From the sequence record KM407600: a DNA stretch of 64,000 nt. One strand, 5' to 3'. Numbering within the stretch: position 1 is the first letter of the stretch; every line of letters begins with the position of its first letter. The stretch comes from Shigella phage Shf125875. The position numbers and the translations under genes were made by a program. Positions 1,491 through 64,000 of the stretch are shown piece by piece. The notes under the pieces were generated by a model, which searched no databases, was not told the DNA's origin, and saw only the letters and a list, made by a program, of their open reading frames with translations.

Positions 1491-2315
1491 ATGATGTTTG
1501 GTTATTTTTACAACTCGTCGTTCAGGCGATATATCACAATGATGGGCGATTTGTTTTCAAATATCCAAGTTAACCGTCAATTGTCTACAGGCAATAAATT
1601 AATTAGAGTTCCTATTACGTATGCATCTAAAGAGCACTTTATGATGAAACTTAATAAATGGACCTCTATAAACTCACAAGAAGATGTGGCTAAAGTCGAA
1701 ACTATTCTACCACGTATAAATCTCCAAATGGTAGATTTCGTTTATAACCCAACGTTTAAAACGAATATATTGAATAACTCTCTTTTGAGTAAATCGACTA
1801 AGGATATTGTAGACCAATACAACCCATCACCAATTAAAATGATTTTTGAACTGAGCATCTTTACTCGTTATGAAGATGATATGTTCCAAATCGTTGAGCA
1901 AATTATTCCATATTTTCAGCCGCATTTTAATACGACTATGATTGAGCAATATGGGCAGGATATTCCATTTGAAAGGGATATTAAAGTCGTATGGATGGCA
2001 GCAGCAATGGACGAACAAATAGACGGTGATAATTTATCTCGTCGACGCTTAGAGTGGTCATTAACATTTGAAGTAAATGGATGGATGTATCCTCCGGTAG
2101 GCGCAGCTGAAGGCCTTATTAAAACGACTTATCTTGATTTTCATGCTAATGAACGAGACCTTCAAACAGCCGCCAGTGTTTTTGAATCAGTTGATACAGA
2201 AATTAAACCGAGAGACGTTGAAGCACAAGATTGGAATGGCGAAGTTGAACAAACTTATACTCATGATATTCCAATCCCGACTCCACCAACCCCTCCTGGT
2301 CCTAGAAAACAATAA
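1491..2315 (+). CDS. 15: Tail sheath stabiliser / tail completion protein gp15
   Basis: 274 aa (T4 about 272 aa); synteny upstream of terminase genes. Confidence 0.75.
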   Translation: MMFGYFYNSSFRRYITMMGDLFSNIQVNRQLSTGNKLIRVPITYASKEHFMMKLNKWTSINSQEDVAKVETILPRINLQMVDFVYNPTFKTNILNNSLLSKSTKDIVDQYNPSPIKMIFELSIFTRYEDDMFQIVEQIIPYFQPHFNTTMIEQYGQDIPFERDIKVVWMAAAMDEQIDGDNLSRRRLEWSLTFEVNGWMYPPVGAAEGLIKTTYLDFHANERDLQTAASVFESVDTEIKPRDVEAQDWNGEVEQTYTHDIPIPTPPTPPGPRKQ

Positions 2316-9573: not shown

Positions 9574-10220
9574 TGAATAAACCCGAGTTACTTATTGAAA
9601 CTTGGGGTCAACCCGGTGAGATTATTGATGGCGTTCCAATGTTGGAATCTCATGATGGAAAAGATTCTGGCTTAAAACCAGGGCTTTATATAGAAGGTAT
9701 TTTTCTTCAGGCAGAGGTTGTTAACCGAAATAAACGTTTATATCCTAAACGCGTTTTGGAAAAAGCAGTAAGTGACTATATTAAAGAACAAGTCGCAACC
9801 AAACAAGCCCTTGGAGAATTAAACCATCCACCTCGTGCAAATGTTGACCCTATGCAAGCCGCTATCATTATTGAAGATATGTGGTGGAAAGGAAACGATG
9901 TATATGGACGCGCTAGAATTATTGAAGGCGACCATGGTCCCGGTGATAAATTAGCTGCTAATATACGAGCTGGTTGGATTCCAGGTGTTTCCTCTCGTGG
10001 TCTTGGTTCTTTAACCGACACCAATAAAGGGTACCGTATCGTGAACGAAGGATTTAAATTAACCGTCGGCGTAGATGCCGTATGGGGACCTTCTGCTCCA
10101 GATGCTTGGGTTACTCCTAAACAAATATCAGAATCAGAATCAGAAAATTCGGTGGAAATCACCAAAAACAGTGCTGACGAAGCATTTAAAGCTCTCGCAG
10201 AGAGTTTAAAAGCATTATAA
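9573..10220 (+). CDS. 21: Prohead core scaffold protein and protease gp21
   Basis: 215 aa (T4 212 aa); synteny. Confidence 0.85.
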   Translation: MNKPELLIETWGQPGEIIDGVPMLESHDGKDSGLKPGLYIEGIFLQAEVVNRNKRLYPKRVLEKAVSDYIKEQVATKQALGELNHPPRANVDPMQAAIIIEDMWWKGNDVYGRARIIEGDHGPGDKLAANIRAGWIPGVSSRGLGSLTDTNKGYRIVNEGFKLTVGVDAVWGPSAPDAWVTPKQISESESENSVEITKNSADEAFKALAESLKAL

Positions 10221-11083: not shown

Positions 11084-12652
11084 ATGACTACTATCAAAAC
11101 TAAAGCTCAGCTCGTAGACAAATGGAAAGAACTGCTGGAAGGTGAAGGCCTGCCGGAAATCGCTAATAGCAAGCAGGCTATTATCGCTAAAATCTTCGAA
11201 AACCAGGAAAAAGATTTCGAAGTATCCCCTGAATATAAAGACGAGAAAATCGCTCAGGCATTTGGTTCTTTCTTGACCGAAGCTGAAATTGGTGGTGACC
11301 ACGGTTATAATGCTCAGAATATTGCAGCAGGTCAAACCTCTGGTGCAGTAACCCAAATTGGGCCGGCAGTTATGGGTATGGTTCGTCGTGCTATTCCTAA
11401 TCTGATCGCTTTTGATATTTGTGGTGTTCAGCCTATGAACAGCCCGACCGGTCAGGTATTTGCTCTCCGTGCAGTATATGGTAAAGACCCTATCGCTGCT
11501 GGCGCTAAAGAAGCTTTCCATCCGATGTATGCCCCAGACGCGATGTTCTCTGGTCAGGGTGCTGCTAAGAAATTCCCAGCTCTGGCTGCTGACACTACCA
11601 CCGTTGTAGGTGATATCTATACTCACTTCTTCCAAGAAACTGGTACTGTATATCTGCAAGCTTCTGCTATCGTAACACTTGATTCTGGTGCAACTGATGC
11701 AGCTAAATTAGATGCAGAAGTTAAGAAACAAATGGAAGCTGGTGCACTGGTAGAAATCGCTGAAGGTATGGCTACTTCTATCGCTGAACTCCAGGAAGGT
11801 TTCAACGGTTCTACCGATAACCCATGGAATGAAATGGGCTTCCGTATCGATAAACAAGTTATCGAAGCTAAATCTCGCCAGCTGAAAGCTGCTTACTCTA
11901 TCGAATTAGCACAAGACCTCCGTGCAGTACACGGTATGGATGCTGATGCTGAACTGAGCGGTATTCTGGCTACGGAAATTATGCTAGAAATCAACCGTGA
12001 AGTTGTTGATTGGATTAACTACTCTGCACAGGTTGGTAAATCTGGTATGACCCTGACTCCGGGTTCTAAAGCCGGTGTATTTGACTTCCAGGACCCGATT
12101 GATATCCGTGGTGCTCGTTGGGCCGGTGAAAGCTTTAAATCTCTGTTGTTCCAGATTGATAAAGAAGCAGTTGAAATTGCTCGTCAAACCGGTCGTGGTG
12201 AAGGTAACTTCATTATCGCTTCCCGTAACGTAGTTAACGTACTGGCTTCAGTTGATACTGGTATTTCTTACGCTGCACAGGGTCTGGCTTCTGGGTTTAA
12301 TACCGACACTACTAAGTCTGTATTTGCCGGTGTACTTGGTGGTAAATACCGCGTATACATCGACCAGTATGCTAAACAGGATTACTTCACCGTTGGTTAC
12401 AAAGGCGCTAACGAAATGGATGCAGGTATTTACTATGCTCCTTACGTTGCACTTACCCCACTGCGTGGTTCCGATCCTAAGAACTTCCAGCCGGTAATGG
12501 GCTTTAAAACTCGTTACGGTATCGGTGTTAACCCGTTTGCTGAAAGTTCCCTGCAGGCTCCAGGTGCTCGCATCCAGTCCGGTATGCCGTCTATCCTGAA
12601 CAGCCTTGGTAAGAACGCTTACTTCCGCCGTGTATATGTAAAAGGCATCTAA
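11084..12652 (+). CDS. 23: Major capsid protein gp23
   Basis: 522 aa; near-identical over long stretches to T4 gp23 as I recall it (MTTIKTKAQL...RRVYVKGI). Confidence 0.97.
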   Translation: MTTIKTKAQLVDKWKELLEGEGLPEIANSKQAIIAKIFENQEKDFEVSPEYKDEKIAQAFGSFLTEAEIGGDHGYNAQNIAAGQTSGAVTQIGPAVMGMVRRAIPNLIAFDICGVQPMNSPTGQVFALRAVYGKDPIAAGAKEAFHPMYAPDAMFSGQGAAKKFPALAADTTTVVGDIYTHFFQETGTVYLQASAIVTLDSGATDAAKLDAEVKKQMEAGALVEIAEGMATSIAELQEGFNGSTDNPWNEMGFRIDKQVIEAKSRQLKAAYSIELAQDLRAVHGMDADAELSGILATEIMLEINREVVDWINYSAQVGKSGMTLTPGSKAGVFDFQDPIDIRGARWAGESFKSLLFQIDKEAVEIARQTGRGEGNFIIASRNVVNVLASVDTGISYAAQGLASGFNTDTTKSVFAGVLGGKYRVYIDQYAKQDYFTVGYKGANEMDAGIYYAPYVALTPLRGSDPKNFQPVMGFKTRYGIGVNPFAESSLQAPGARIQSGMPSILNSLGKNAYFRRVYVKGI

Positions 12653-54601: not shown

Positions 54602-57600
54602 ATGGTTGACATCAAACGTAAGTTCAGGGCCGAAGATGGTCTTGACGCAGGCGGTGATAAGATAGTTAACGTTGCGCTTGCTGACCGCACAGTTGGCACC
54701 GATGGCGTGAACGTTGACTTTTTGGTGCAAGAAAACACCGTACAGAATTATGACGATACGCGCGCGTATACAAAAGATTTTATTGTTCTTTATGATAATC
54801 GTTTTTATCAAGCTTTAAACGATATTCCAGCTCCGGCAGGCCCTTTCTCTTTGGCTAAATGGAAGTCAACTCGTACAGATGCAGAATGGACTACAGTTCA
54901 AGGCGGAGATTTCCAATTATCAGTAGGTAACTCTATTGCGGTTGATACTTCAGCTGGCACTGATATTAATTTCACTTTGCCTCAAAATCCTTTAAATGGC
55001 GATACAGTTATTTTGTCTGATATTGGCGGTAGAGTAGGCTATGTAAAAGTTCAAATTACTGCAGAGGCTCAAAGTATTGTAAACTTTAGAGGACAACAGG
55101 TTCGTTCAGTTTTAATGACGCACCCAAAATCTAAAATGGTCTTCATTTTTAGCAACCGCCTATGGCAAATGTATGTTTCTGATTACGAACGTAATGCAGT
55201 CACAGTAACTCCTGCTAAGCCATATCAGGCGCAACCTAACGATTTTATCATTCGACGTTTTACATCAGCCGCTCCTATTAATATTACATTGCCTCGCAAT
55301 GCTAATAATGGCGATATTATTAATTTAGTTGATTTAGACAAATTAAACCCGTTATATCACACAATTGTCAAAACTTACGATGATACAACTTCTATACGAG
55401 AAGCCGGTGTTCATGTAGCAGAAGGACGTAATACTGCGGAAGCATTCTTTGTTTATGATTCTGCTAATAGCTTATGGCGTGTTTGGGAAGGTGACCAGAA
55501 ATCTCGTTTACGTATAGTTCGTAATGATACTGATTTACGCCCTAATGAAGAAGTTCTTGTTTTTGGAACTAATAATGATACAATCTCGACGGTAAATCTT
55601 ACTTTGCCTACAGATATTTTGTCTGGCGATACTGTTAAAATATCGTTGAATTATATGCGTAAAGGGCAAACTGTAAAAATTAAAGCTGCTGAAGGCGATA
55701 CAATTGCTAGCAGTATTTCTTTATTACAGTTCCCAAAACGTTCGGAGTATCCACCTGATGCACAATGGGTTTCTGTTAGTGAGCTGGAATTTAATGGTGA
55801 TACTTCGTATGTACCTGTACTTGAGTTAGTTTATATAGAAGATTATTCATCTGAAACAAAATATTGGGTAGTTCAACAAAACACCGTAACCGTCGAACGA
55901 GTCGATGCATCGAGCAATACAACTCGAGCTCGTTTAGGTGTTATTGCTCTTGCTTCTCAAGCGCAAGCAAATGTCGATTTAGAAAATGCTCCTGGTAAAG
56001 AACTGGCTATTACTCCGGAAACATTAGCAAATCGTACAGCAACTGAAACTCGTCGTGGTATTGCTCGTATTGCAACAACTGCACAAGTTAACCAGAATAC
56101 CGATTTTGCATTCCAAGACGACTTGATTATTTCTCCTAAGAAATTGAACGAACGTACAGCAACTGAAACCCGTAGAGGTGTTGCTGAAGTTGCAACTCAA
56201 GCTGAAACTAATGCTGGAACAGATGACACCACTATTATTACTCCTAAGAAATTGGATGCCCGTCAAGGTTCTGAAGTTTTATCTGGTATTGTAAAATACA
56301 CATCTACGACTGGTACTATAGCTGCTACTATTCGCGGTAATGCTGGGACTAACGTTTATAACAAAGCCGTAGATAATTTAACTATTTCTCCAAAGGCTCT
56401 TGACCAGTATAAAGCTACCCCTACTCAGCAGGGTGCAGTAATTCTTGCTATTGAAAGTGAAGTTATCGCTGGCGAATCACAAGCAGGTTGGGCTAATGCT
56501 GTAGTGACCCCTGAAACTCTGCATAAGAAAACTTCTACTGATGGGCGTATTGGTTTAATTGAAATTGCTACGCAAGCAGAAACTAACACTGGAACTGATT
56601 ATACTAGAGCAGTAACGCCTAAGACGTTAAATGATAGGAAAGCTACGGAAGGATTATCTGGCATAGCCGAAATTGCTACGCAAGTTGAATTTGATACTGG
56701 AACTGACGATACTCGTATCTCGACTCCACTGAAAATTAAAACTCATTTTGATTCTTCTGGCCGTACCAGTGTTAATTCTGATTCCGGACTTATTGAAGAA
56801 GGAACCTTGTGGAACCATTATACTCTTGATATTTCTAAAGCAAATGAAACACAACGCGGTACACTTCGCGTAGCGACCCAGGCAGAATCTAATGCAGGAA
56901 CTTTAGATGATGTTCTTATTACTCCTAAAAAGCTTTTAGGGACTAAGTCCACTGAAACGTCTGAAGGCGTAATTAAGGTTGCTACTCAGGCTGAAACTGT
57001 AACAGGAACTTCTGCTAATACTGCTGTATCACCTAAGAATTTAAAATGGATTGTTCAATCAGAACCATCATGGACTGCTACTACGGCAATTCGTGGATTC
57101 GTTAAAACTTCATCTGGTTCTATTACATTTGTTGGTAATGATACAGTTGGTTCAACACAATCTTTAGAATCATATGAGAAAAATAGCTATGCGGTATCAC
57201 CATATGAATTAAACCGTGTACTTGCTAACTACTTACCGTTGAAAGCTAAAGCAGCTGATAGTAATTTGTTAGATGGTCTAGATTCTCTTCAGTTCATCCG
57301 TAGAGACATCGACCAGACGGTTAATGGTTCTTTAAGTCTTACTAAACAGACCAACCTGAGTGCTCCTTTAGTATCTACAAGCACTGCTTCTTTTGGTTCC
57401 GAAGCATCTGTTACTCGTAGATTAACTCTTAATGATTCTAGCGGTTCTGAAATAATTTTCACTAAAGGAACCCAATCTCTTAGTAATAAAGAGAATTTCG
57501 TTGTTAGAGCATGGGGTAATAGCGCTACAGATGGTGCCCGTGATACAGTATTTGAAGCGGGTGACGAAACCGGATACCATTTCTATTCTCAGCGCGCTGC

Positions 57601-58435
57601 TGATAATAAAGTATCATTTAATATTAATGGAACACTTTATTCAACAGGTATTGTTTCTACAAATGGATTAAATGTTACAGGTGTTTCTACCTTTACAGGG
57701 CCTATTAGTGCTACAGGCGAAATTGTTTCTAGTTCTCCTATTGCATTCAGAGCTATTAATGGTAACTATGGTGTTATGCTTTATAATGCTGGTAACAGTT
57801 CTTATATTGCATTAACTAACTCAGGTGACCAGACCGGGACGTTTAATAACTTACGCCCGATCACGATTAACAACGCCACAGGCTTAGTTCGTCTTGACAA
57901 TGGTGTTCAAATCACAAGTGGTGCAACAATAACTACCGGTGGGTTAACTGTAAATAACAGAATTATTTCTAACGGCGTTAAAACTGCCACTGTTTATACC
58001 GATAAACCAACAGCTTCTACTGTAGGTTTTTGGTCTATTGACATTAACGATTCTGCTGTATATAGCCAATTCCCTGGATACTGGACGCGTGATAACAAAG
58101 GTAACCGTGACCAAGAAATTAAATATCCTGGTACTTTGACTCAATTCGGCAATAGCTTAGATTCGCTTTATCAGGATTGGATTTGTTATCCTACAGGTGC
58201 AAATGGTGGTAGTATTCGTTATACTCGTACCTGGCAGAAAAATAAAGATGCTTGGACTTCATTTGCAATGGTATTTGATAGTGGCAACCCACCTTCACCT
58301 AGCGATGTCGGTGCTATCCCATCTGATAATGCTGTTATTGGAAACCTTACTATTCGAGACTTCTTACAATTAGGAAATGTGAGAATTGTTCCAGACCCGG
58401 TTAACAAAACAGTTAAATTTATATGGGTTGAATAA
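54602..58435 (+). CDS. 34: Long tail fibre proximal subunit gp34
   Basis: 1277 aa (T4 1289 aa); internal repeats TETRRG, ATQAETN, ITPKKL; late promoter upstream. Confidence 0.85.
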   Translation: MVDIKRKFRAEDGLDAGGDKIVNVALADRTVGTDGVNVDFLVQENTVQNYDDTRAYTKDFIVLYDNRFYQALNDIPAPAGPFSLAKWKSTRTDAEWTTVQGGDFQLSVGNSIAVDTSAGTDINFTLPQNPLNGDTVILSDIGGRVGYVKVQITAEAQSIVNFRGQQVRSVLMTHPKSKMVFIFSNRLWQMYVSDYERNAVTVTPAKPYQAQPNDFIIRRFTSAAPINITLPRNANNGDIINLVDLDKLNPLYHTIVKTYDDTTSIREAGVHVAEGRNTAEAFFVYDSANSLWRVWEGDQKSRLRIVRNDTDLRPNEEVLVFGTNNDTISTVNLTLPTDILSGDTVKISLNYMRKGQTVKIKAAEGDTIASSISLLQFPKRSEYPPDAQWVSVSELEFNGDTSYVPVLELVYIEDYSSETKYWVVQQNTVTVERVDASSNTTRARLGVIALASQAQANVDLENAPGKELAITPETLANRTATETRRGIARIATTAQVNQNTDFAFQDDLIISPKKLNERTATETRRGVAEVATQAETNAGTDDTTIITPKKLDARQGSEVLSGIVKYTSTTGTIAATIRGNAGTNVYNKAVDNLTISPKALDQYKATPTQQGAVILAIESEVIAGESQAGWANAVVTPETLHKKTSTDGRIGLIEIATQAETNTGTDYTRAVTPKTLNDRKATEGLSGIAEIATQVEFDTGTDDTRISTPLKIKTHFDSSGRTSVNSDSGLIEEGTLWNHYTLDISKANETQRGTLRVATQAESNAGTLDDVLITPKKLLGTKSTETSEGVIKVATQAETVTGTSANTAVSPKNLKWIVQSEPSWTATTAIRGFVKTSSGSITFVGNDTVGSTQSLESYEKNSYAVSPYELNRVLANYLPLKAKAADSNLLDGLDSLQFIRRDIDQTVNGSLSLTKQTNLSAPLVSTSTASFGSEASVTRRLTLNDSSGSEIIFTKGTQSLSNKENFVVRAWGNSATDGARDTVFEAGDETGYHFYSQRAADNKVSFNINGTLYSTGIVSTNGLNVTGVSTFTGPISATGEIVSSSPIAFRAINGNYGVMLYNAGNSSYIALTNSGDQTGTFNNLRPITINNATGLVRLDNGVQITSGATITTGGLTVNNRIISNGVKTATVYTDKPTASTVGFWSIDINDSAVYSQFPGYWTRDNKGNRDQEIKYPGTLTQFGNSLDSLYQDWICYPTGANGGSIRYTRTWQKNKDAWTSFAMVFDSGNPPSPSDVGAIPSDNAVIGNLTIRDFLQLGNVRIVPDPVNKTVKFIWVE

Positions 58436-58443
58436 GAGGTTAT

Positions 58444-59568
58444 ATGGAAAAATTTATGGCAAGGTTTGGACAAGGATACGTCCAAACGCCGTTTTTATCG
58501 GAAAGCAATTCAGTTAGATTTAAGCTAAGTATAGCGGGTTCATGCCCGCTTTCAACAACTAATCCGTATATTTTGTTCCAAAATGAGCCTTTAGGGTTGC
58601 AGTCTTTTGGTATTGGACTAAATGTTAGGGTGATAAATCCGGAAAATGGAACTATAGTTGATAGTAAATTATACAATTTTGCGCCTACAAATAATGCAAC
58701 TTCAGCTGCATTTATTTCGTTTGTTAATACATACGCAGATAATTTCATTTTCGCATTTATTTCTAATAACAAATTTAATTTGCCGCCAGAAATAATTGAA
58801 TGGTTTAAAGCTGCTGGGAGTTCAGTTATACCGTCAATTGAAGTTGCTAGTCTTGTTGATATTTCATATTCAGCGTTTTATGTTTCAGGTAAAAATACTA
58901 TTGCATTAGAACACATAAAATACAGTAATAAGAAAACAATTTCTGATTACGCAACTCCATTAGATATTGTATATGACTCTATTGCTGATATAGGTGCTAC
59001 CGGCTATCCTAGACGTACATATGAAGCTCTAGAAACGTTTTTATCTCCTGTTGGAGGAACTAACAATGAAATAAAAAGGATGCCTACGTCATCCCTTGTT
59101 ACTCCTATCGCAAACTATGGATTAAAGCCTACAGATTTTCTTTATTTGAAATTTCAATTAATGGCTGATGAAGAATTATTAGAGGAAGGAACCACAAGAC
59201 TTTCAATTCGTTTCTTTAAGTCTCCATCTAGCTCTCCTATATCATCTAAAGATATAAACTTTGATGGAACTGCCGGGGAGTGGAAGCTATATGAAGAATA
59301 CGTTGAAATACCAGCTGAAGCTGATGGCTTTACAGTATATTGTTACCGTACGGCCTCAGTCGGTCAAGGTGGACTAAGAAATGTTATTTTCACTGAAGTA
59401 TCATGTAACGGAAGTATAGCAAAACCCGCTGAGTTTGGTATAAACGGTATTCGTGTTAATTATATTGATGAATCATTAACCGGTAATGATATAATGGACT
59501 TGCCTACTCAGTTATCTAACGACACAGGTAAGGTATTTGGGCAGGAATTTAAAGAGTACACAGAATAA
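58444..59568 (+). CDS. 35: Long tail fibre hinge protein gp35
   Basis: 374 aa (T4 372 aa). Confidence 0.75.
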   Translation: MEKFMARFGQGYVQTPFLSESNSVRFKLSIAGSCPLSTTNPYILFQNEPLGLQSFGIGLNVRVINPENGTIVDSKLYNFAPTNNATSAAFISFVNTYADNFIFAFISNNKFNLPPEIIEWFKAAGSSVIPSIEVASLVDISYSAFYVSGKNTIALEHIKYSNKKTISDYATPLDIVYDSIADIGATGYPRRTYEALETFLSPVGGTNNEIKRMPTSSLVTPIANYGLKPTDFLYLKFQLMADEELLEEGTTRLSIRFFKSPSSSPISSKDINFDGTAGEWKLYEEYVEIPAEADGFTVYCYRTASVGQGGLRNVIFTEVSCNGSIAKPAEFGINGIRVNYIDESLTGNDIMDLPTQLSNDTGKVFGQEFKEYTE

Positions 59569-59569
59569 A

Positions 59570-59589
59570 GGAGACTTCGGTCTCCTTTT
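59570..59589 (+). terminator. Terminator after gene 35
   Basis: GGAGAC-TTCG-GTCTCC followed by TTTT. Confidence 0.65.
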
Positions 59590-59593
59590 CGCG

Positions 59594-59601
59594 TATAAAT
59601 A
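59594..59601 (+). promoter_or_regulatory. T4-type late promoter for gene 36
   Basis: TATAAATACTTTA about 27 nt upstream of gene 36. Confidence 0.6.
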
Positions 59602-59627
59602 CTTTAATATTAATAAGGAGACACGAA

Positions 59628-60284
59628 ATGGCCGATTTAAAAGCCGGAAGTACAGTTGGTGGTTCCGTCATATGGCATCAAGGCAATTTTCCTTTAATGC
59701 CAGCTGGCGATGACATCCTATATAAAACATTTAAATTATACACCGAATATAACAAGCCAAAAGCGGCTGATAACGATTTCGTATCTAAAGCAAATGGTGG
59801 GACATATCTCAAAAAGGTAATCTTTAACGAAGGTATTGCAGTCAAAACAGCAGATGACCAAACGAATGGTATTTTTTCTGGTGGTGGTGACGCCGCGACA
59901 TTCGACCAAACAAACATGGATATTGTTTCGTGGTATGGTATTGGGTTTAAATCATCTCAAGGTACAGGTGAAAGAACTGTTGTAATTGATGCTCGCACCG
60001 GTAATATAAGTTCTAAAGGCGTTATTGAAGCATCTCAATTCAGAGCCACAACGTTAGCACCTTTAAATAATTACGACCTTACTCGCAAAGATTATGTTGA
60101 TAGTCAAATAAATACAGTTAATGCTAATGCAAACAGACGCGTACTCCGTTCAGGAGATACGATGACCGGCGCGCTAACAGCCCCAAACTTTTTCTCACAG
60201 AATCCTGCATCTCAACCCTCGCATGTTCCACGATTTGACCAAATTGTTATTAAGGATTCTGTTCAAGATTTCGGCTATTATTAA
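59628..60284 (+). CDS. 36: Long tail fibre distal connector gp36
   Basis: 218 aa (T4 221 aa); late promoter upstream. Confidence 0.75.
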   Translation: MADLKAGSTVGGSVIWHQGNFPLMPAGDDILYKTFKLYTEYNKPKAADNDFVSKANGGTYLKKVIFNEGIAVKTADDQTNGIFSGGGDAATFDQTNMDIVSWYGIGFKSSQGTGERTVVIDARTGNISSKGVIEASQFRATTLAPLNNYDLTRKDYVDSQINTVNANANRRVLRSGDTMTGALTAPNFFSQNPASQPSHVPRFDQIVIKDSVQDFGYY

Positions 60285-60292
60285 GAGGACTT

Positions 60293-63200
60293 ATGGCTAC
60301 TTTAAAACAAATACAATTTAAAAGAAGCAAAACTGCAGGAGCACGTCCTGCCGCTTCAGTATTAGCCGAAGGTGAATTGGCTATAAACTTAAAAGACCGT
60401 GTACTTTTTACTAAAGATGACCAAGGAAATATTATTGATCTGGGTTTTGCTAAGGGTGGTAGTATTGACGGGAATGTTATTCATATAGGAAACTATAATC
60501 AAACTGGTGATTATACTTTAAATGGCGTCTTCACTCAGACTGGTAATTTTAATTTAACTGGTATTGCTCGAGTAACTCGCGATATTATTGCCGCTGGGCA
60601 GATTATGACTGAAGGCGGAGAACTTATTACAAAAAGTTCAGGTACATCACATGTTCGTTTTCATGATTCAGCTGACCGTGAACGTGGAATCATTTTTTCT
60701 CCTGCTAATGATGGATTAACTACACAAGTAATTAATATTAGAGTTCAAGACTACGCAGCTGGTAGCGAAAGCACCTATGCATTTTCAGGCAGTGGACAAT
60801 TTATTTCACCTGAAGTATCGGCATGGAAATCTATGTCAACTCCTCAGATTTTGACTGACAAAGTCATTACAGACGGGAAGAAGGCAGGTGATTATGACAT
60901 CTATTCATTAGCAAATAATAATTCTAATACAGATAAAAATAATTTACGTGTTGTACGTACCGACCCAGCGGCCGCAATGCTCCATGAAATTTGTGAAAAC
61001 AACGGCATCAGTTGGTATTCTGGTTCAACCCCTACTGATTATATGTTATCTTTTGCTTATTCCGGCGGTTTTCAAGCAGGCCATTCGATTGCAGTAGGTA
61101 TGGAATCAGGGCCTATGACATATTCAACCTTAGGTAAAAGTTCTATTGTTCTTGGGGATAATGATACTGGATTTAAATGGCATCAAGACGGATATTATTT
61201 CAGCGTTAATAATGGAACAAAAACGTTTTTATTTAATCCTAGCGAAACAACTAGCCTAAGAAAATTTGTAGCTGGATATTCTACTAATGGAACCGATTTA
61301 ACTACTCCTCCAACTGAAAACTATGCTCTTGCTACTGTTGTGACATATCACGATAATAACGCGTTTGGAGATGGTCAGACTCTTTTGGGATATTATCAAG
61401 GCGGTAACTATCATCACTATTTCCGTGGTAAGGGTACCACAAACATTAATACTCATGGCGGTTTGTTGGTTACTCCTGGTAATATTGATGTTATTGGCGG
61501 TTCTGTTAATATAGATGGTAGAAATAATTCTTCTACACTAATGTTTAGAGGCAACACAACAGGATACAGCTCGGTTGATAATATGGATATTAAAGTTTGG
61601 GGTAATACGTTTGTTGATCCAAGCGGAGGTATCCGTAAAAACGTCATGGAAATTTCTGATGCAACTAGTTGGATGAGCTATATTCAAAGACTTACAACAG
61701 GTGAAGTAGAAATGAACGTTAACGGTTCATTTGAATCATCTCGTGTTACTGCTGGAGATAGGGGAGTTTACACAACAGGCGAAATTTCATCTGGGGCTGT
61801 GAATGCGCTTCGTATTTGGAACGCAGATTATGGAGCTATTTTTAGACGTTCAGAAGATAGTCTTCATATTATTCCAACTACTTACGGTGAAGGTAAACAC
61901 GGCGGTATCGGTCCACTTCGCCCGTTTAGTTTGGCTTTAGATACCGGTAAAGTTACTATTCCAGATTTACAGTCAAAATACAATACGATCACTGCGAACG
62001 GCTATATTAAATTTGTTGGTCATGGAGCGGGTGCCGGCGGTTATGACATTCAATATGCTCAAGCAGCTCCTATTTTCCAGGAAATTGATGATGATGCTGT
62101 AAACAAATATTATCCTATTGTTAAACAGAAGTTTTTAAATGGTAAAGCCGTCTGGTCTTTAGGTACTGAAATTAATTCGGGTACATTCGTTATTCATCAT
62201 TTAAAAGAAGACGGAACTCAAGGACATACATCTCGTTTTAATCAAGACGGTACTGTTAACTTCCCAGATAACGTTCTGGTCGGTGGTGGTGAAGCTGCTA
62301 TTGCTCGTAATGGTAATATTTTCTCGGATATTTGGAAAACGTTTACTTCTGCAGGCGACGTAACTAATATTCGCGACGCAATAGCTACTCGTGTTGCCAA
62401 AGAAGGTGATACGATGACCGGCACTCTTTGGATTAATAAAGATGCTGCTGGAATAGTTCTTAATCCTCCTTTGGCCAGTGATTCATCATTTATTCGTTCT
62501 GATACGGCCGGGGCCAATAATTGGTATATTGGTAAAGGCGGTGCCGACAATGGTCTAGGTTTTTACAGTTACATTACACAAGGCGGTGTATACATAACAA
62601 CTAACGGTGAAATATCGCTTTCTCCTCAAGGCCAAGGAACATTTAATTTTAATAGAGACCGCCTCCATATAAACGGTACACAATGGACCGCACACCAGGG
62701 CGGTGACTGGGCTAACCAATGGCGCCAAGAAGCTCCTATATTTGTAGATTTTGGTAATGTCGGTAATGATAGTTATTATCCTATTATTAAAGGAAAATCC
62801 GGTATTACTAACGAAGGATACGTATCCGGCGTAGATTTTGGTATGCGACGCATTACTAATACCTGGGCACAAGGTATTATTCGTGTAGGTAACCAGGAAA
62901 ACGGTTCTGACCCCCAAGCCATCTATGAATTCCATCATAATGGTGTTTTTTATGCCCCTAGCTTACTTAAGAGCAGCAGAGTATCAGCAGGCGGCGGTGA
63001 CCCTGCATGGGCCGGGCCGTGTATTGTACTGGGAGATAACGATACCGGTTTGCTTTGGGAAAACGATGGTATTTTCAACGCATATGCAAACGGCCAAGGT
63101 GTGTTTAGTTTTAGACCTGGTTTAGCTCAGACATTCGGTGATGTTAACTTCCACTGTAATGCAGGTATGTATGTTCGTGATAACATCGATGTTAACGACG

Positions 63201-63532
63201 TTTATATTCGTTCTGATATTCGTTGTAAGTCAGAAATTAAGCTTATAGAGAATGCCCAAGAGAAATCTAAACTATTGGGCGGTTATACTTATCTGCTTAA
63301 AAACTCTGTTACAGACGAAGTTAAACCGTCCGCAGGTTTAATTGCTCAGGAAGTTCAAGAAGTATTACCTGAACTTGTTTCTGAAGATAAAGAGACCGGA
63401 CTGCTTCGTTTGAACTATAACGGTATTATTGGTTTAAATACAGCTGCAATAAACGAGCATACAGATGAAATCAAGGAATTGAAATCTGAAATTGCCGAAT
63501 TGAAAGCATTAATTAAATCATTGATAAAATAA
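60293..63532 (+). CDS. 37: Long tail fibre distal subunit gp37 with C-terminal intramolecular-chaperone-like domain
   Basis: 1079 aa; C-terminal SDIRCKSEIK...GLIAQEVQEVLPELV resembles peptidase S74 / endosialidase chaperone domains. Confidence 0.85.
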   Translation: MATLKQIQFKRSKTAGARPAASVLAEGELAINLKDRVLFTKDDQGNIIDLGFAKGGSIDGNVIHIGNYNQTGDYTLNGVFTQTGNFNLTGIARVTRDIIAAGQIMTEGGELITKSSGTSHVRFHDSADRERGIIFSPANDGLTTQVINIRVQDYAAGSESTYAFSGSGQFISPEVSAWKSMSTPQILTDKVITDGKKAGDYDIYSLANNNSNTDKNNLRVVRTDPAAAMLHEICENNGISWYSGSTPTDYMLSFAYSGGFQAGHSIAVGMESGPMTYSTLGKSSIVLGDNDTGFKWHQDGYYFSVNNGTKTFLFNPSETTSLRKFVAGYSTNGTDLTTPPTENYALATVVTYHDNNAFGDGQTLLGYYQGGNYHHYFRGKGTTNINTHGGLLVTPGNIDVIGGSVNIDGRNNSSTLMFRGNTTGYSSVDNMDIKVWGNTFVDPSGGIRKNVMEISDATSWMSYIQRLTTGEVEMNVNGSFESSRVTAGDRGVYTTGEISSGAVNALRIWNADYGAIFRRSEDSLHIIPTTYGEGKHGGIGPLRPFSLALDTGKVTIPDLQSKYNTITANGYIKFVGHGAGAGGYDIQYAQAAPIFQEIDDDAVNKYYPIVKQKFLNGKAVWSLGTEINSGTFVIHHLKEDGTQGHTSRFNQDGTVNFPDNVLVGGGEAAIARNGNIFSDIWKTFTSAGDVTNIRDAIATRVAKEGDTMTGTLWINKDAAGIVLNPPLASDSSFIRSDTAGANNWYIGKGGADNGLGFYSYITQGGVYITTNGEISLSPQGQGTFNFNRDRLHINGTQWTAHQGGDWANQWRQEAPIFVDFGNVGNDSYYPIIKGKSGITNEGYVSGVDFGMRRITNTWAQGIIRVGNQENGSDPQAIYEFHHNGVFYAPSLLKSSRVSAGGGDPAWAGPCIVLGDNDTGLLWENDGIFNAYANGQGVFSFRPGLAQTFGDVNFHCNAGMYVRDNIDVNDVYIRSDIRCKSEIKLIENAQEKSKLLGGYTYLLKNSVTDEVKPSAGLIAQEVQEVLPELVSEDKETGLLRLNYNGIIGLNTAAINEHTDEIKELKSEIAELKALIKSLIK

Positions 63533-63537
63533 TAAAA

Positions 63538-63551
63538 GGGCCTTCGGGCCC
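63538..63551 (+). terminator. UUCG-tetraloop hairpin between genes 37 and 38
   Basis: GGGCC-TTCG-GGCCC right after gene 37 stop; no U-run, gene 38 RBS follows. Confidence 0.35.
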
Positions 63552-63562
63552 TGGAGGTTTAT

Positions 63563-64000
63563 ATGGCAGTAGTAGGAATCCCTGGTTGGATTGGGACTTC
63601 AGCCGTTGCTGAAACGGGACAAAGATGGATGACGGCTGCTTCAAGGGAACTTCGTTTAGGAAACCCTTCATGGATGTCCCAATTCGCGGGCCGTTCAAGA
63701 GAAATAATTCACACACTTGGAGCAGACCATAACTTCAATGGTCAATGGTTCCGAGATAGATGTTTTGAGGCAGGTAGTGCACCTATAGTGTTTAATATCA
63801 CCGGAAATTTGGTATCATATAGTAAAGATGTTCCATTATTCTTTATGTATGGCGATACGCCAAATGAATATGTTACTTTGAATATTCACGGTGGAGTTCA
63901 TATGTGGGGACGAGGTGGTAACGGTACTGTAAACGGAAACCCAGGCACAAATGGCGGCGATGTAATCCAAAATGATATCGGCGGAAGACTTCGTATTTGG
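63563..64000 (+). CDS. 38: Receptor-recognising adhesin gp38, T2-type, 3'-truncated at window edge
   Basis: N-terminus [11 protein letters not shown]...[27 protein letters not shown] then glycine-rich [17 protein letters not shown]. Confidence 0.8.

Follow-up and report, generated by a model that had tools for sequence, protein, structure and literature searches.

The window, the whole 64,000-nucleotide stretch of the Shigella phage Shf125875 record KM407600 that was analyzed, closes with gene 37 and the first part of gene 38, and genes 34, 35 and 36 lie upstream of gene 37 (Table 1). DNA identity to the best-matching E. coli Tevenvirinae phages, CCU7, CAU_ECP01, PECP20, TH12 and AugustSocin included, is 97.0–97.5%, and in these relatives the remainder of gene 38 is followed by the holin gene. 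The region very probably comes from a T2-type E. coli Tevenvirinae phage, in which it makes up the distal end of the long-tail-fibre operon (genes 34-35-36-37-38). At the amino acid level, gp37 is 93.6% identical to its counterpart in phage TH12 (tblastn), the matches being the gp37 proteins of T-even phages, which are annotated in relatives as ‘long tail fiber distal subunit’. Gene 37 closes with a tandem stop, and 30 nt of spacer follow before the gene 38 reading frame starts at 63563. The features named in a preliminary description of this DNA are present where it placed them, the start of gene 38 having been only implied there.

Table 1. Features of the gene 37–38 region, in window coordinates (↓ marks a cleavage position).
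Feature	Position	Strand	Basis
Gene 37, long tail fibre distal subunit precursor, 1079 aa	60293..63532 (stop included)	+	ORF and tblastn
gp37 distal tip, ~residues 908–973, ending in DVYIR; predicted gp38 docking platform	63014..63211	+	6F45_A alignment
Predicted autocleavage site Arg973↓Ser974, DVYIR973↓S974DIRCK979	63209..63214	+	Homology to S16 and fPS sites
Predicted catalytic dyad Ser974 / Lys979	63212–63214 / 63227–63229	+	S74 family alignment
Peptidase_S74 / intramolecular chaperone core, residues 974–1029	63212..63379	+	PF13884
C-terminal helical heptad tail, ~residues 1050–1079, NEHTDEIKELKSEIAELKALIKSLIK	63440..63529	+	Conserved with S16
Intercistronic hairpin A-GGGCC(UUCG)GGCCC-U, between gene 37 stop and gene 38 ribosome-binding site	63537..63552	+	Folding and conservation
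Gene 38 Shine-Dalgarno GGAGG, 5 nt before ATG	63553..63557	+	Read from sequence
Gene 38, T2-type adhesin, first 146 codons (window ends)	63563..64000	+	PF21721 and PF05268
gp38 N-terminal attachment domain, residues 1–42, with W9/W22/W37 inside	63563..63688	+	Pfam Gp38_N
First glycine-rich stretch of gp38, residues 110–141, 12 Gly in 32	63890..63985	+	Read directly

The C-terminal domain of gp37

The C-terminal part of gp37 matches the Peptidase_S74 family (PF13884) over profile positions 1–57 of 58 at 46.4 bits (E 4.7e-12), a score far beyond chance given the gathering score of 22 bits for this family. Ser974 occupies position 1 of the Pfam model. The last 140 residues match 35 PHROG families, annotated for the most part as tail or tail-fibre proteins, at their extreme C-termini, and tblastn places homologous C-termini in 1731 phage records. 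Structural homology extends further upstream, as residues 908–1079 match S16 gp37 in PDB 6F45_A (E 1.3e-31), with the distal tip aligning to S16 gp37 residues 25–92 in that entry. The heptad-like tail of gp37, IKELKSEIAELKALIKSLIK, is conserved in alignment with the S16 tail, INVHTKEINELKKQLKELKDIVKFLTK, and is presumed to form a trimerising coiled coil; the MyRF counterpart, a triple coiled coil, is responsible for trimerisation (PMC8326128). An AlphaFold2 model built from the last 140 residues as a lone sequence (mean pLDDT 47.7, pTM 0.29) is too poor to define a fold of the kind seen in 3GW6, 4UW8 and 7DC3 and, at this low overall confidence, predicts helix only in the tail (pLDDT ~70).

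At the start of the domain, the segment S974-D-I-R-C-K979 holds an intact Ser-x4-Lys dyad with the expected spacing. The equivalent residues lie in S638DRRIK643 of S16, SDIRLK of T2, S911-N-G-E-R-K916 of the K1F endosialidase endoNF and at S587/K592 of MyRF, and Lys979 aligns with K592 in the MyRF structure 7DC3, where the site appears as A587 (S587A). For K1F, MAFFT set the cleavage serine six residues off (S905 rather than S911), and residues 905–920 were then read directly; a literature search for ‘Ser911/Lys916’ of K1F returned no match, and the statement on the dyad comes from the MyRF structure paper, in which mutagenesis found the Ser-Lys pair to be indispensable (PMC8326128). The residue following the arginine in SDIRCK is a cysteine here, an isoleucine in S16, a leucine in T2 and an arginine in K1F. 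Because this position varies across the family, the cysteine is taken to pose no problem.

The preliminary description had assigned the gp37 C-terminus to an intramolecular chaperone or S74 domain, and the above-threshold PF13884 match together with the intact dyad bears this out. It had picked the SDIRCK serine as nucleophile, which fits the Ser-Lys dyad of the family, with Ser974 as the predicted catalytic residue. The chaperone is shorter than the ~120 residues proposed there: the piece predicted to be excised, SDIRCKSEIKLIENAQ..., runs from Ser974 (nt 63212) to Lys1079 and comprises the last 106 of the 1079 residues.

Autoproteolytic release of such domains is known experimentally for S16 (PMC7917993) and for endoNF and MyRF (PMC8326128), and it is reported for T2 gp37 (PMC3157838). 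The published S16 site is DLNVS↓SDRRIKK, and the site predicted for the fPS Yersinia phages is DVYIR↓SDGRLKI. The DVYIR motif, which gp37 here shares, is the predicted docking surface of those phages (PMC7917993). In S16, the surface on which gp38 docks is exposed only after cleavage (PMC7917993). In the least improbable of the alternatives, still a very improbable one, the S74-like domain is just a folding or trimerisation module that is retained uncleaved, which would leave gp37 at full length and gp38 bound at another place or only transiently. Such an arrangement gains some room from the fact that cleavage of this gp37 is deduced from homology and that the single-sequence fold model is poor (pLDDT 47.7), but the Ser-Lys dyad is intact with correct spacing, the site is nearly identical to that of T2, for which processing is reported (PMC3157838), the S16 docking surface becomes accessible to gp38 only after cleavage, and the residues that dock are conserved here.

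The gene 38 product and the 37–38 junction

The product of gene 38 matches two adhesin families. PF21721 (Gp38_N) covers residues 1–42 at 75.2 bits (cutoff 25), and PF05268 (GP38) covers residues 47–146 at 146.8 bits (cutoff 25), over profile positions 1–101 of 218, where the window ends. Further matches are to phrog_2056, annotated ‘tail fiber protein; host specificity’ (E 7.5e-74), and to the gp38 structures of PP01 (PDB 9V85, E 1.5e-51) and S16 (6F45_D, E 7e-32). An alignment with the gp38 proteins of AugustSocin, T2 and S16 shows W9, W22 and W37 to be invariant. In S16, three conserved tryptophans of gp38 anchor into pockets of gp37 (PMC6851490, PMC7917993), and W9, W22 and W37 probably correspond to these anchors. 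The (gp37)3-gp38 architecture has been described (PMC6851490). Gene 38 lies directly downstream of the chaperone-bearing gp37 gene, an arrangement common to T2 and S16.

The preliminary description had named this gene as encoding a T2-type gp38, which the two Pfam matches and the invariant tryptophans confirm, and had credited the protein with glycine-rich segments. The first of these is indeed in the window, and nine of its residues, G116, R117, G118, G119, G121, G128, G131, G132 and G140, are invariant in alignment with T2 and S16. It is the only such stretch within the window; the others, along with all hypervariable receptor loops that the description also invoked, fall past base 64000, so their nature can be deduced from relatives only. 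The window holds 146 of ~259 gp38 residues, with the receptor-binding half beyond it. The AugustSocin protein, which has 259 residues and is 99% identical over the shared 146, covers the whole GP38 profile; the text of the BASEL paper does not give the receptor of AugustSocin. The errors of the preliminary description were small, being confined to the chaperone length and to hypervariable segments located outside the window.

Several database records label the orthologous gene ‘long tail fiber assembly chaperone’ or ‘distal long tail fiber assembly catalyst’, which would favor a non-structural assembly chaperone of the T4 kind over a virion adhesin. These labels are inherited from T4 naming, and the idea is highly unlikely to hold for this protein: it matches the adhesin Pfam families and the S16 and PP01 gp38 structures, while T4 gp38 belongs to neither family; the T4 RefSeq note calls the T2 ‘gp38’ an unrelated protein and an adhesin; and T2-type gp38 is placed at the fibre tip by published work, PMC6851490 and PMC3157838 among it. 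In a Pfam control, T4 gp37 lacked PF13884 and T4 gp38 lacked the adhesin domain. Membership of the T4 type was rejected on this ground, as the window proteins show the opposite pattern.

The spacer between the two genes contains a UNCG-tetraloop hairpin that T2, S16 and T4 also have at this junction, with stem sequences that differ and pairing that is kept. The case for this element rests on conservation of pairing rather than on folding energy, which is unexceptional (z = -1.2 in a 56-nt context). An Rfam scan of 62800–64000 matched no RNA family. The hairpin was also considered as a plus-strand intrinsic terminator and rejected, having no T-run; the sole terminator-like match is on the minus strand. 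It is doubtful, though conceivable, that the hairpin has a function as RNA, either in balancing how much genes 37 and 38 yield, for example at a 3:1 ratio of gp37 to gp38, or in protecting the transcript end. The hairpin is kept even in T4, although T4 gene 38 is unrelated. Its position differs between the types, lying upstream of the Shine-Dalgarno sequence in the T2 type and between the Shine-Dalgarno sequence and the AUG in T4.

Comparison with known fibre tips

The fibre tip of T2 shares with this one the gene order, a Peptidase_S74 domain at the same place at the gp37 C-terminus, a cleavage motif that reads NVYIR↓SDIRLKS in T2 and DVYIR↓SDIRCKS here, and a gp38 of the same adhesin family with the same invariant tryptophan and glycine positions. 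The T2 chaperone and gp38 are nonetheless only ~39% and ~49% identical to the proteins described here, the T2 chaperone has 99 residues rather than 106, and T2 gp37 (annotated CDS of 4026 nt) is longer than 1079 residues. The gp38 N-terminal domain is also of a different subtype from that of T2. The gp38 of PP01 complements a T2 gene-38 deletion only after its N-terminal 113 residues have been exchanged for those of T2, a failure that the authors attribute to incompatibility between T2 gp37 and PP01 gp38.

S16 (PDB 6F45; Dunne et al. 2018) has a homologous gp37 tip, chaperone and gp38, with PF13884 at the same place in gp37, autocleavage just before an SD..K motif, docking by tryptophan prongs and a polyglycine sandwich adhesin. 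It differs in the residue before the cut (serine, where gp37 here has arginine), in chaperone length (112 residues by our count, 113 as reported in PMC7917993, against 106), in its much shorter gp37 of 749 residues, in host and receptor (Salmonella OmpC) and in genus (Gelderlandvirus). For the fPS Yersinia phages, in which DVYIR likewise directly precedes the chaperone serine, the same cleavage prediction has already been published (PMC7917993); the residues that follow (SDGRLKI versus SDIRCKS here) and the host range differ. The CASP13 highlights paper describes gp38 docking, though it does not mention the chaperone or cleavage.

More distant are the K1F endosialidase (MEROPS S74 type; 3GW6) and the MyRF ICA domain (7DC3), which share the Pfam family, the Ser-x4-Lys dyad and the placement of the domain, which follows a trimeric beta-helix on its C-terminal side and finishes in a coiled coil. 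Sequence identity to these is low, the K1F chaperone carries a long insertion, and cleavage there releases a tailspike enzyme or a transcription factor rather than a platform for a separate adhesin. T4 resembles this phage in operon position, in homologous gp34, gp35, gp36 and gp37 N-terminal regions and in the UUCG hairpin at the 37–38 junction. Its gp37, however, terminates in a needle that itself binds the receptor (Pfam Collar and Phage_fiber), and its gp38 is an unrelated, non-structural chaperone. That the resemblance of the gp37 end and of gp38 to their families is compositional or due to chance, with no real domain behind it, is refuted by Pfam scores 2 to 6 times the gathering thresholds, PDB E-values of 1e-31 and 1e-51 and the homologous C-termini that tblastn finds across phage records, leaving this reading with a negligible probability.

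A probable self-processed fibre capped by an adhesin

A gp37 with a self-cleaving C-terminal chaperone, followed by a T2-type gp38 that caps the fibre, is with high probability the best explanation of this locus, as judged from homology. Direct observations on this DNA are the identity of the domains, the conservation of catalytic and docking residues, the order of the genes and the close homology to S16 and T2 proteins that have been characterised by experiment; no evidence contradicts the reading. In the model that we favor, gp37 would be made as a 1079-residue precursor whose last 106 residues act as an intramolecular chaperone (Peptidase S74 / ICA domain). The chaperone would trimerise through its C-terminal coiled coil and serve as a template on which the trimeric beta-helical tip upstream of it folds. 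When a correct trimer has formed, the chaperone would use its Ser974/Lys979 dyad to sever its own chain between Arg973 and Ser974 and would then dissociate, the cleavage exposing a flat tip that ends in ...DVYIR. A single gp38 copy would next dock on this tip by the three-helix domain at its N-terminus, with W9, W22 and W37 each entering one of three equivalent pockets in the gp37 trimer, and would be retained as the receptor-binding adhesin of the virion. From the glycine-rich motifs of gp38, a polyglycine-II sandwich is expected to form and to present the hypervariable loops, which would set host range. For this phage, autocleavage, a 3:1 stoichiometry, virion-borne gp38 and the receptor are all predictions by homology.

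Every element of the reading has either passed a test or agrees with experiments published on close homologues. Processing of the gp37 C-terminus followed by gp38 capping is attributed to T2 and T6 (Drexler 1986, as cited in Trojet 2011, PMC3157838), the cleavage-then-capping model has been published for S16 (Dunne 2018; PMC7917993), and most T-even phages use this mode. For S16, T2 and PP01, the literature shows virion gp38 to be a monomer that sits on the trimer of gp37 and determines the receptor. Removal of the C-terminus before docking, which the preliminary description had set against the situation in T4, agrees with the S16 and T2/T6 literature cited above, and the T4 control lacks both domains.

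The tip module is therefore of an ordinary, well-studied kind: it is real, was correctly read in the preliminary description and is already known. The architecture, cleavage site, catalytic dyad and docking mode have been published for T2, T6, S16, PP01 and the fPS phages, and near-identical GenBank sequences already carry the annotations ‘long tail fiber distal subunit’ and ‘adhesin tip’. What had been put forward as a prediction is T-even biology of the textbook kind. The gain from this window is in annotation only: mature gp37 should have 973 residues, and the name ‘assembly catalyst’, which several records still give to gp38, should here be replaced by adhesin. In most T-even phages, host range is set by this gp37–gp38 tip module, which is a practical target for engineering phage specificity through exchange of gp38 or of its loops.

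The gp37 C-terminal domain and its predicted cleavage site

The C-terminus of gp37 carries a Peptidase_S74 domain ('Chaperone of endosialidase', PF13884), matched over residues 974-1029 with 46.4 bits (gathering score 22). The preliminary description placed a chaperone-like domain in the last ~120 residues; the domain stands, but the segment quoted, from Ser974 (nt 63212) to Lys1079, has 106 residues. Over its last 140 residues gp37 matches 35 PHROG families, mostly tail-fibre proteins, at their extreme C-terminal ends; by tblastn, 1731 phage records have homologous C-termini, among them T2 gp37 and T5-like phage fibres. Among solved structures, residues 908-1079 match gp37 of Salmonella phage S16 (6F45_A, E 1.3e-31) and, more weakly, the ICA domain of myelin regulatory factor (MyRF; 7DC3). 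The best full-length gp37 match has 93.6% amino acid identity.

S74 proteins cut via a Ser-Lys dyad, S911/K916 in K1F endosialidase and S587/K592 in MyRF, and alanine substitution of either residue abolishes cleavage (PMC8326128). K1F residues 905-920, read directly (SNPIVTS911NGERK916TEPV), have the same dyad spacing as S974-D-I-R-C-K979 of Shf125875 gp37; the corresponding stretches are S638-D-R-R-I-K643 in S16 and S-D-I-R-L-K in T2. In the HMMER alignment to 7DC3, an S587A mutant, A587/K592 align with S974/K979, and the Y615/Y617 pair with Y-T-Y of GGYTYLL. The published S16 gp37 cut is DLNVS|SDRRIKK, and cleavage of the Yersinia fPS phage fibres is predicted after DVYIR (DVYIR|SDGRLKI) (PMC7917993). 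The site predicted here is DVYIR|SDIRCK, against NVYIR|SDIRLK in T2. With the dyad intact and the cleavage site near-identical to that of T2, an uncleaved S74 remnant with a structural role only is unlikely.

The gp38 adhesin and the contrast with T4

The partial gp38 matches Gp38_N over residues 1-42 and GP38 over residues 47-146 (profile positions 1-101 of 218, where the window ends), and is homologous to gp38 of PP01 (9V85, E 1.5e-51) and S16 (6F45_D, E 7e-32), in agreement with the earlier naming of the downstream gene as a T2-type gp38. The glycine-rich segments also ascribed to it are borne out for the first stretch, the only one within the window (residues 110-141, 12 of 32 Gly); the other glycine-rich motifs, and every hypervariable segment, fall past base 64000. 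The 259-residue gp38 of the close relative AugustSocin, 99% identical where the two overlap, covers the GP38 profile in full. S16 gp38 is anchored by three conserved tryptophans, which sit in pockets of the gp37 trimer; we take these to correspond to W9, W22 and W37, all invariant in the alignment with T2 and S16.

Several GenBank records name the T2-type orthologue 'long tail fiber assembly chaperone' or 'assembly catalyst'. Such labels would favour a T4-style chaperone as the gene 38 product, but they are the T4 gene name carried over and are at odds with the adhesin family assignment, which contradicts that reading. In the same Pfam search, T4 gp37 has Collar and Phage_fiber domains without S74 and T4 gp38 matches no adhesin family, whereas PF13884 lies at the C-terminus of both T2 and S16 gp37; the contrast with T4 drawn earlier is therefore correct. 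This contrast is standard knowledge, and the T4 RefSeq note on gene 38 agrees with it. Chance domain resemblance is excluded by the match scores.

In the adhesin-capped fibre, precursor gp37 would trimerise via its C-terminal chaperone, the beta-helical tip would fold, and gp37 would then cut itself at R973|S974, freeing the 106-residue chaperone; one gp38, bearing the receptor-binding loops, would cap the exposed tip. This model is already in the literature: Trojet et al. set it out, tracing it to 1986 work, and PMC7917993 summarises the S16 structure work likewise. The CASP13 account (Dunne and Leiman) describes the S16-type fibre as the common one among T-even phages, with T4 the exception.

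The fibre operon and its junction hairpin

The + strand run of large ORFs at 54602-64000 corresponds to genes 34-35-36-37-38, the long-tail-fibre operon of T-even phages. Over the final 24 kb of the window, identity to E. coli Tevenvirinae phages, among them OLB35, TH12, AlbertHofmann and PhAPEC2, is 95-97%. Over the 1101 bases at 62900-64000, the best five phages (CCU7, CAU_ECP01, PECP20, TH12 and AugustSocin) reach 97.0-97.5%; their records label gene 37 'long tail fiber distal subunit' and gene 38 'adhesin tip for distal long tail fiber', or use comparable names.

Features of the fibre operon and junction hairpins of related phages
Feature	Coordinates	Strand	Detail
Large ORF	54602-58435	+	1277 aa
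Large ORF	58444-59568	+	374 aa
PF15711 (ILEI) in gp35	58615-58836		residues 58-131
ORF with Pfam Phage_T4_gp36	59628-60284	+	218 aa
Gene 37 ORF	60293-63532	+	1079 aa
gp37 motif, first copy	61154-61180		residues 288-296
PF21446 in gp37	61634-61930		residues 448-546
gp37 motif, second copy	63032-63058		residues 914-922
Tandem stop codons of gene 37	63530-63535		TAA TAA
Junction hairpin, window	63537-63552		GGGCC(TTCG)GGCCC
Gene 38 ORF	from 63563	+	146 codons, then window end
Junction hairpin, T2			GAGGGC(TTCG)GCCCTC
Junction hairpin, S16			AGAGCC(TACG)GGCTCT
Junction hairpin, T4			GAGGGGC(TTCG)GCCCTTC
Position of a junction hairpin listed above, comparison locus L002	~1857-1874		UNCG tetraloop
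Position of a junction hairpin listed above, comparison locus L003	~11795-11812		UNCG tetraloop
Position of a junction hairpin listed above, comparison locus L005	~9627-9646		UNCG tetraloop

Tandem stop codons close gene 37, and a C(UUCG)G hairpin in the spacer directly precedes the gene 38 Shine-Dalgarno. Stems differ among the window, T2, S16 and T4, while pairing and a UUCG or UACG loop are kept, even in T4 despite its unrelated gene 38. In the window, T2 and S16 the hairpin precedes the Shine-Dalgarno, whereas T4 has GGAG, then the hairpin, then ATG. Intercistronic UUCG hairpins are reportedly classic features of T4 mRNA (Tuerk et al. 1988). A search of Rfam found no family for this hairpin, and the terminator check rejected it as a + strand terminator.

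Elsewhere in gp37, the motif IVLGDNDTG(F/L).W..DG occurs in the N-terminal third and again directly ahead of the tip. The second copy is the one that S16 gp37 conserves (GDNDTGLRWGGDGI). Internal duplication of a fibre module is suggested. A further segment matches PF21446, the gp34 proximal-fibre trimerisation family (Gp34_trimer-like; 34.3 bits, cutoff 27), and so points to a module common to proximal and distal half-fibres; T4 gp37 falls slightly under threshold (25.5 bits). In the hinge protein gp35, a match to ILEI ('Interleukin-like EMT inducer', a FAM3-type domain) lies marginally over the family's cutoff (30.2 bits against 27); the name is a surprising one for a phage hinge connector.

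The Shf125875 fibre-tip module is already known and no fresh variant. Its sole departures are ordinary mosaic sequence divergence, with ~39% identity to T2 in the chaperone and ~49% in gp38, and the experiments proposed in the preliminary description have in essence already been performed on homologues.
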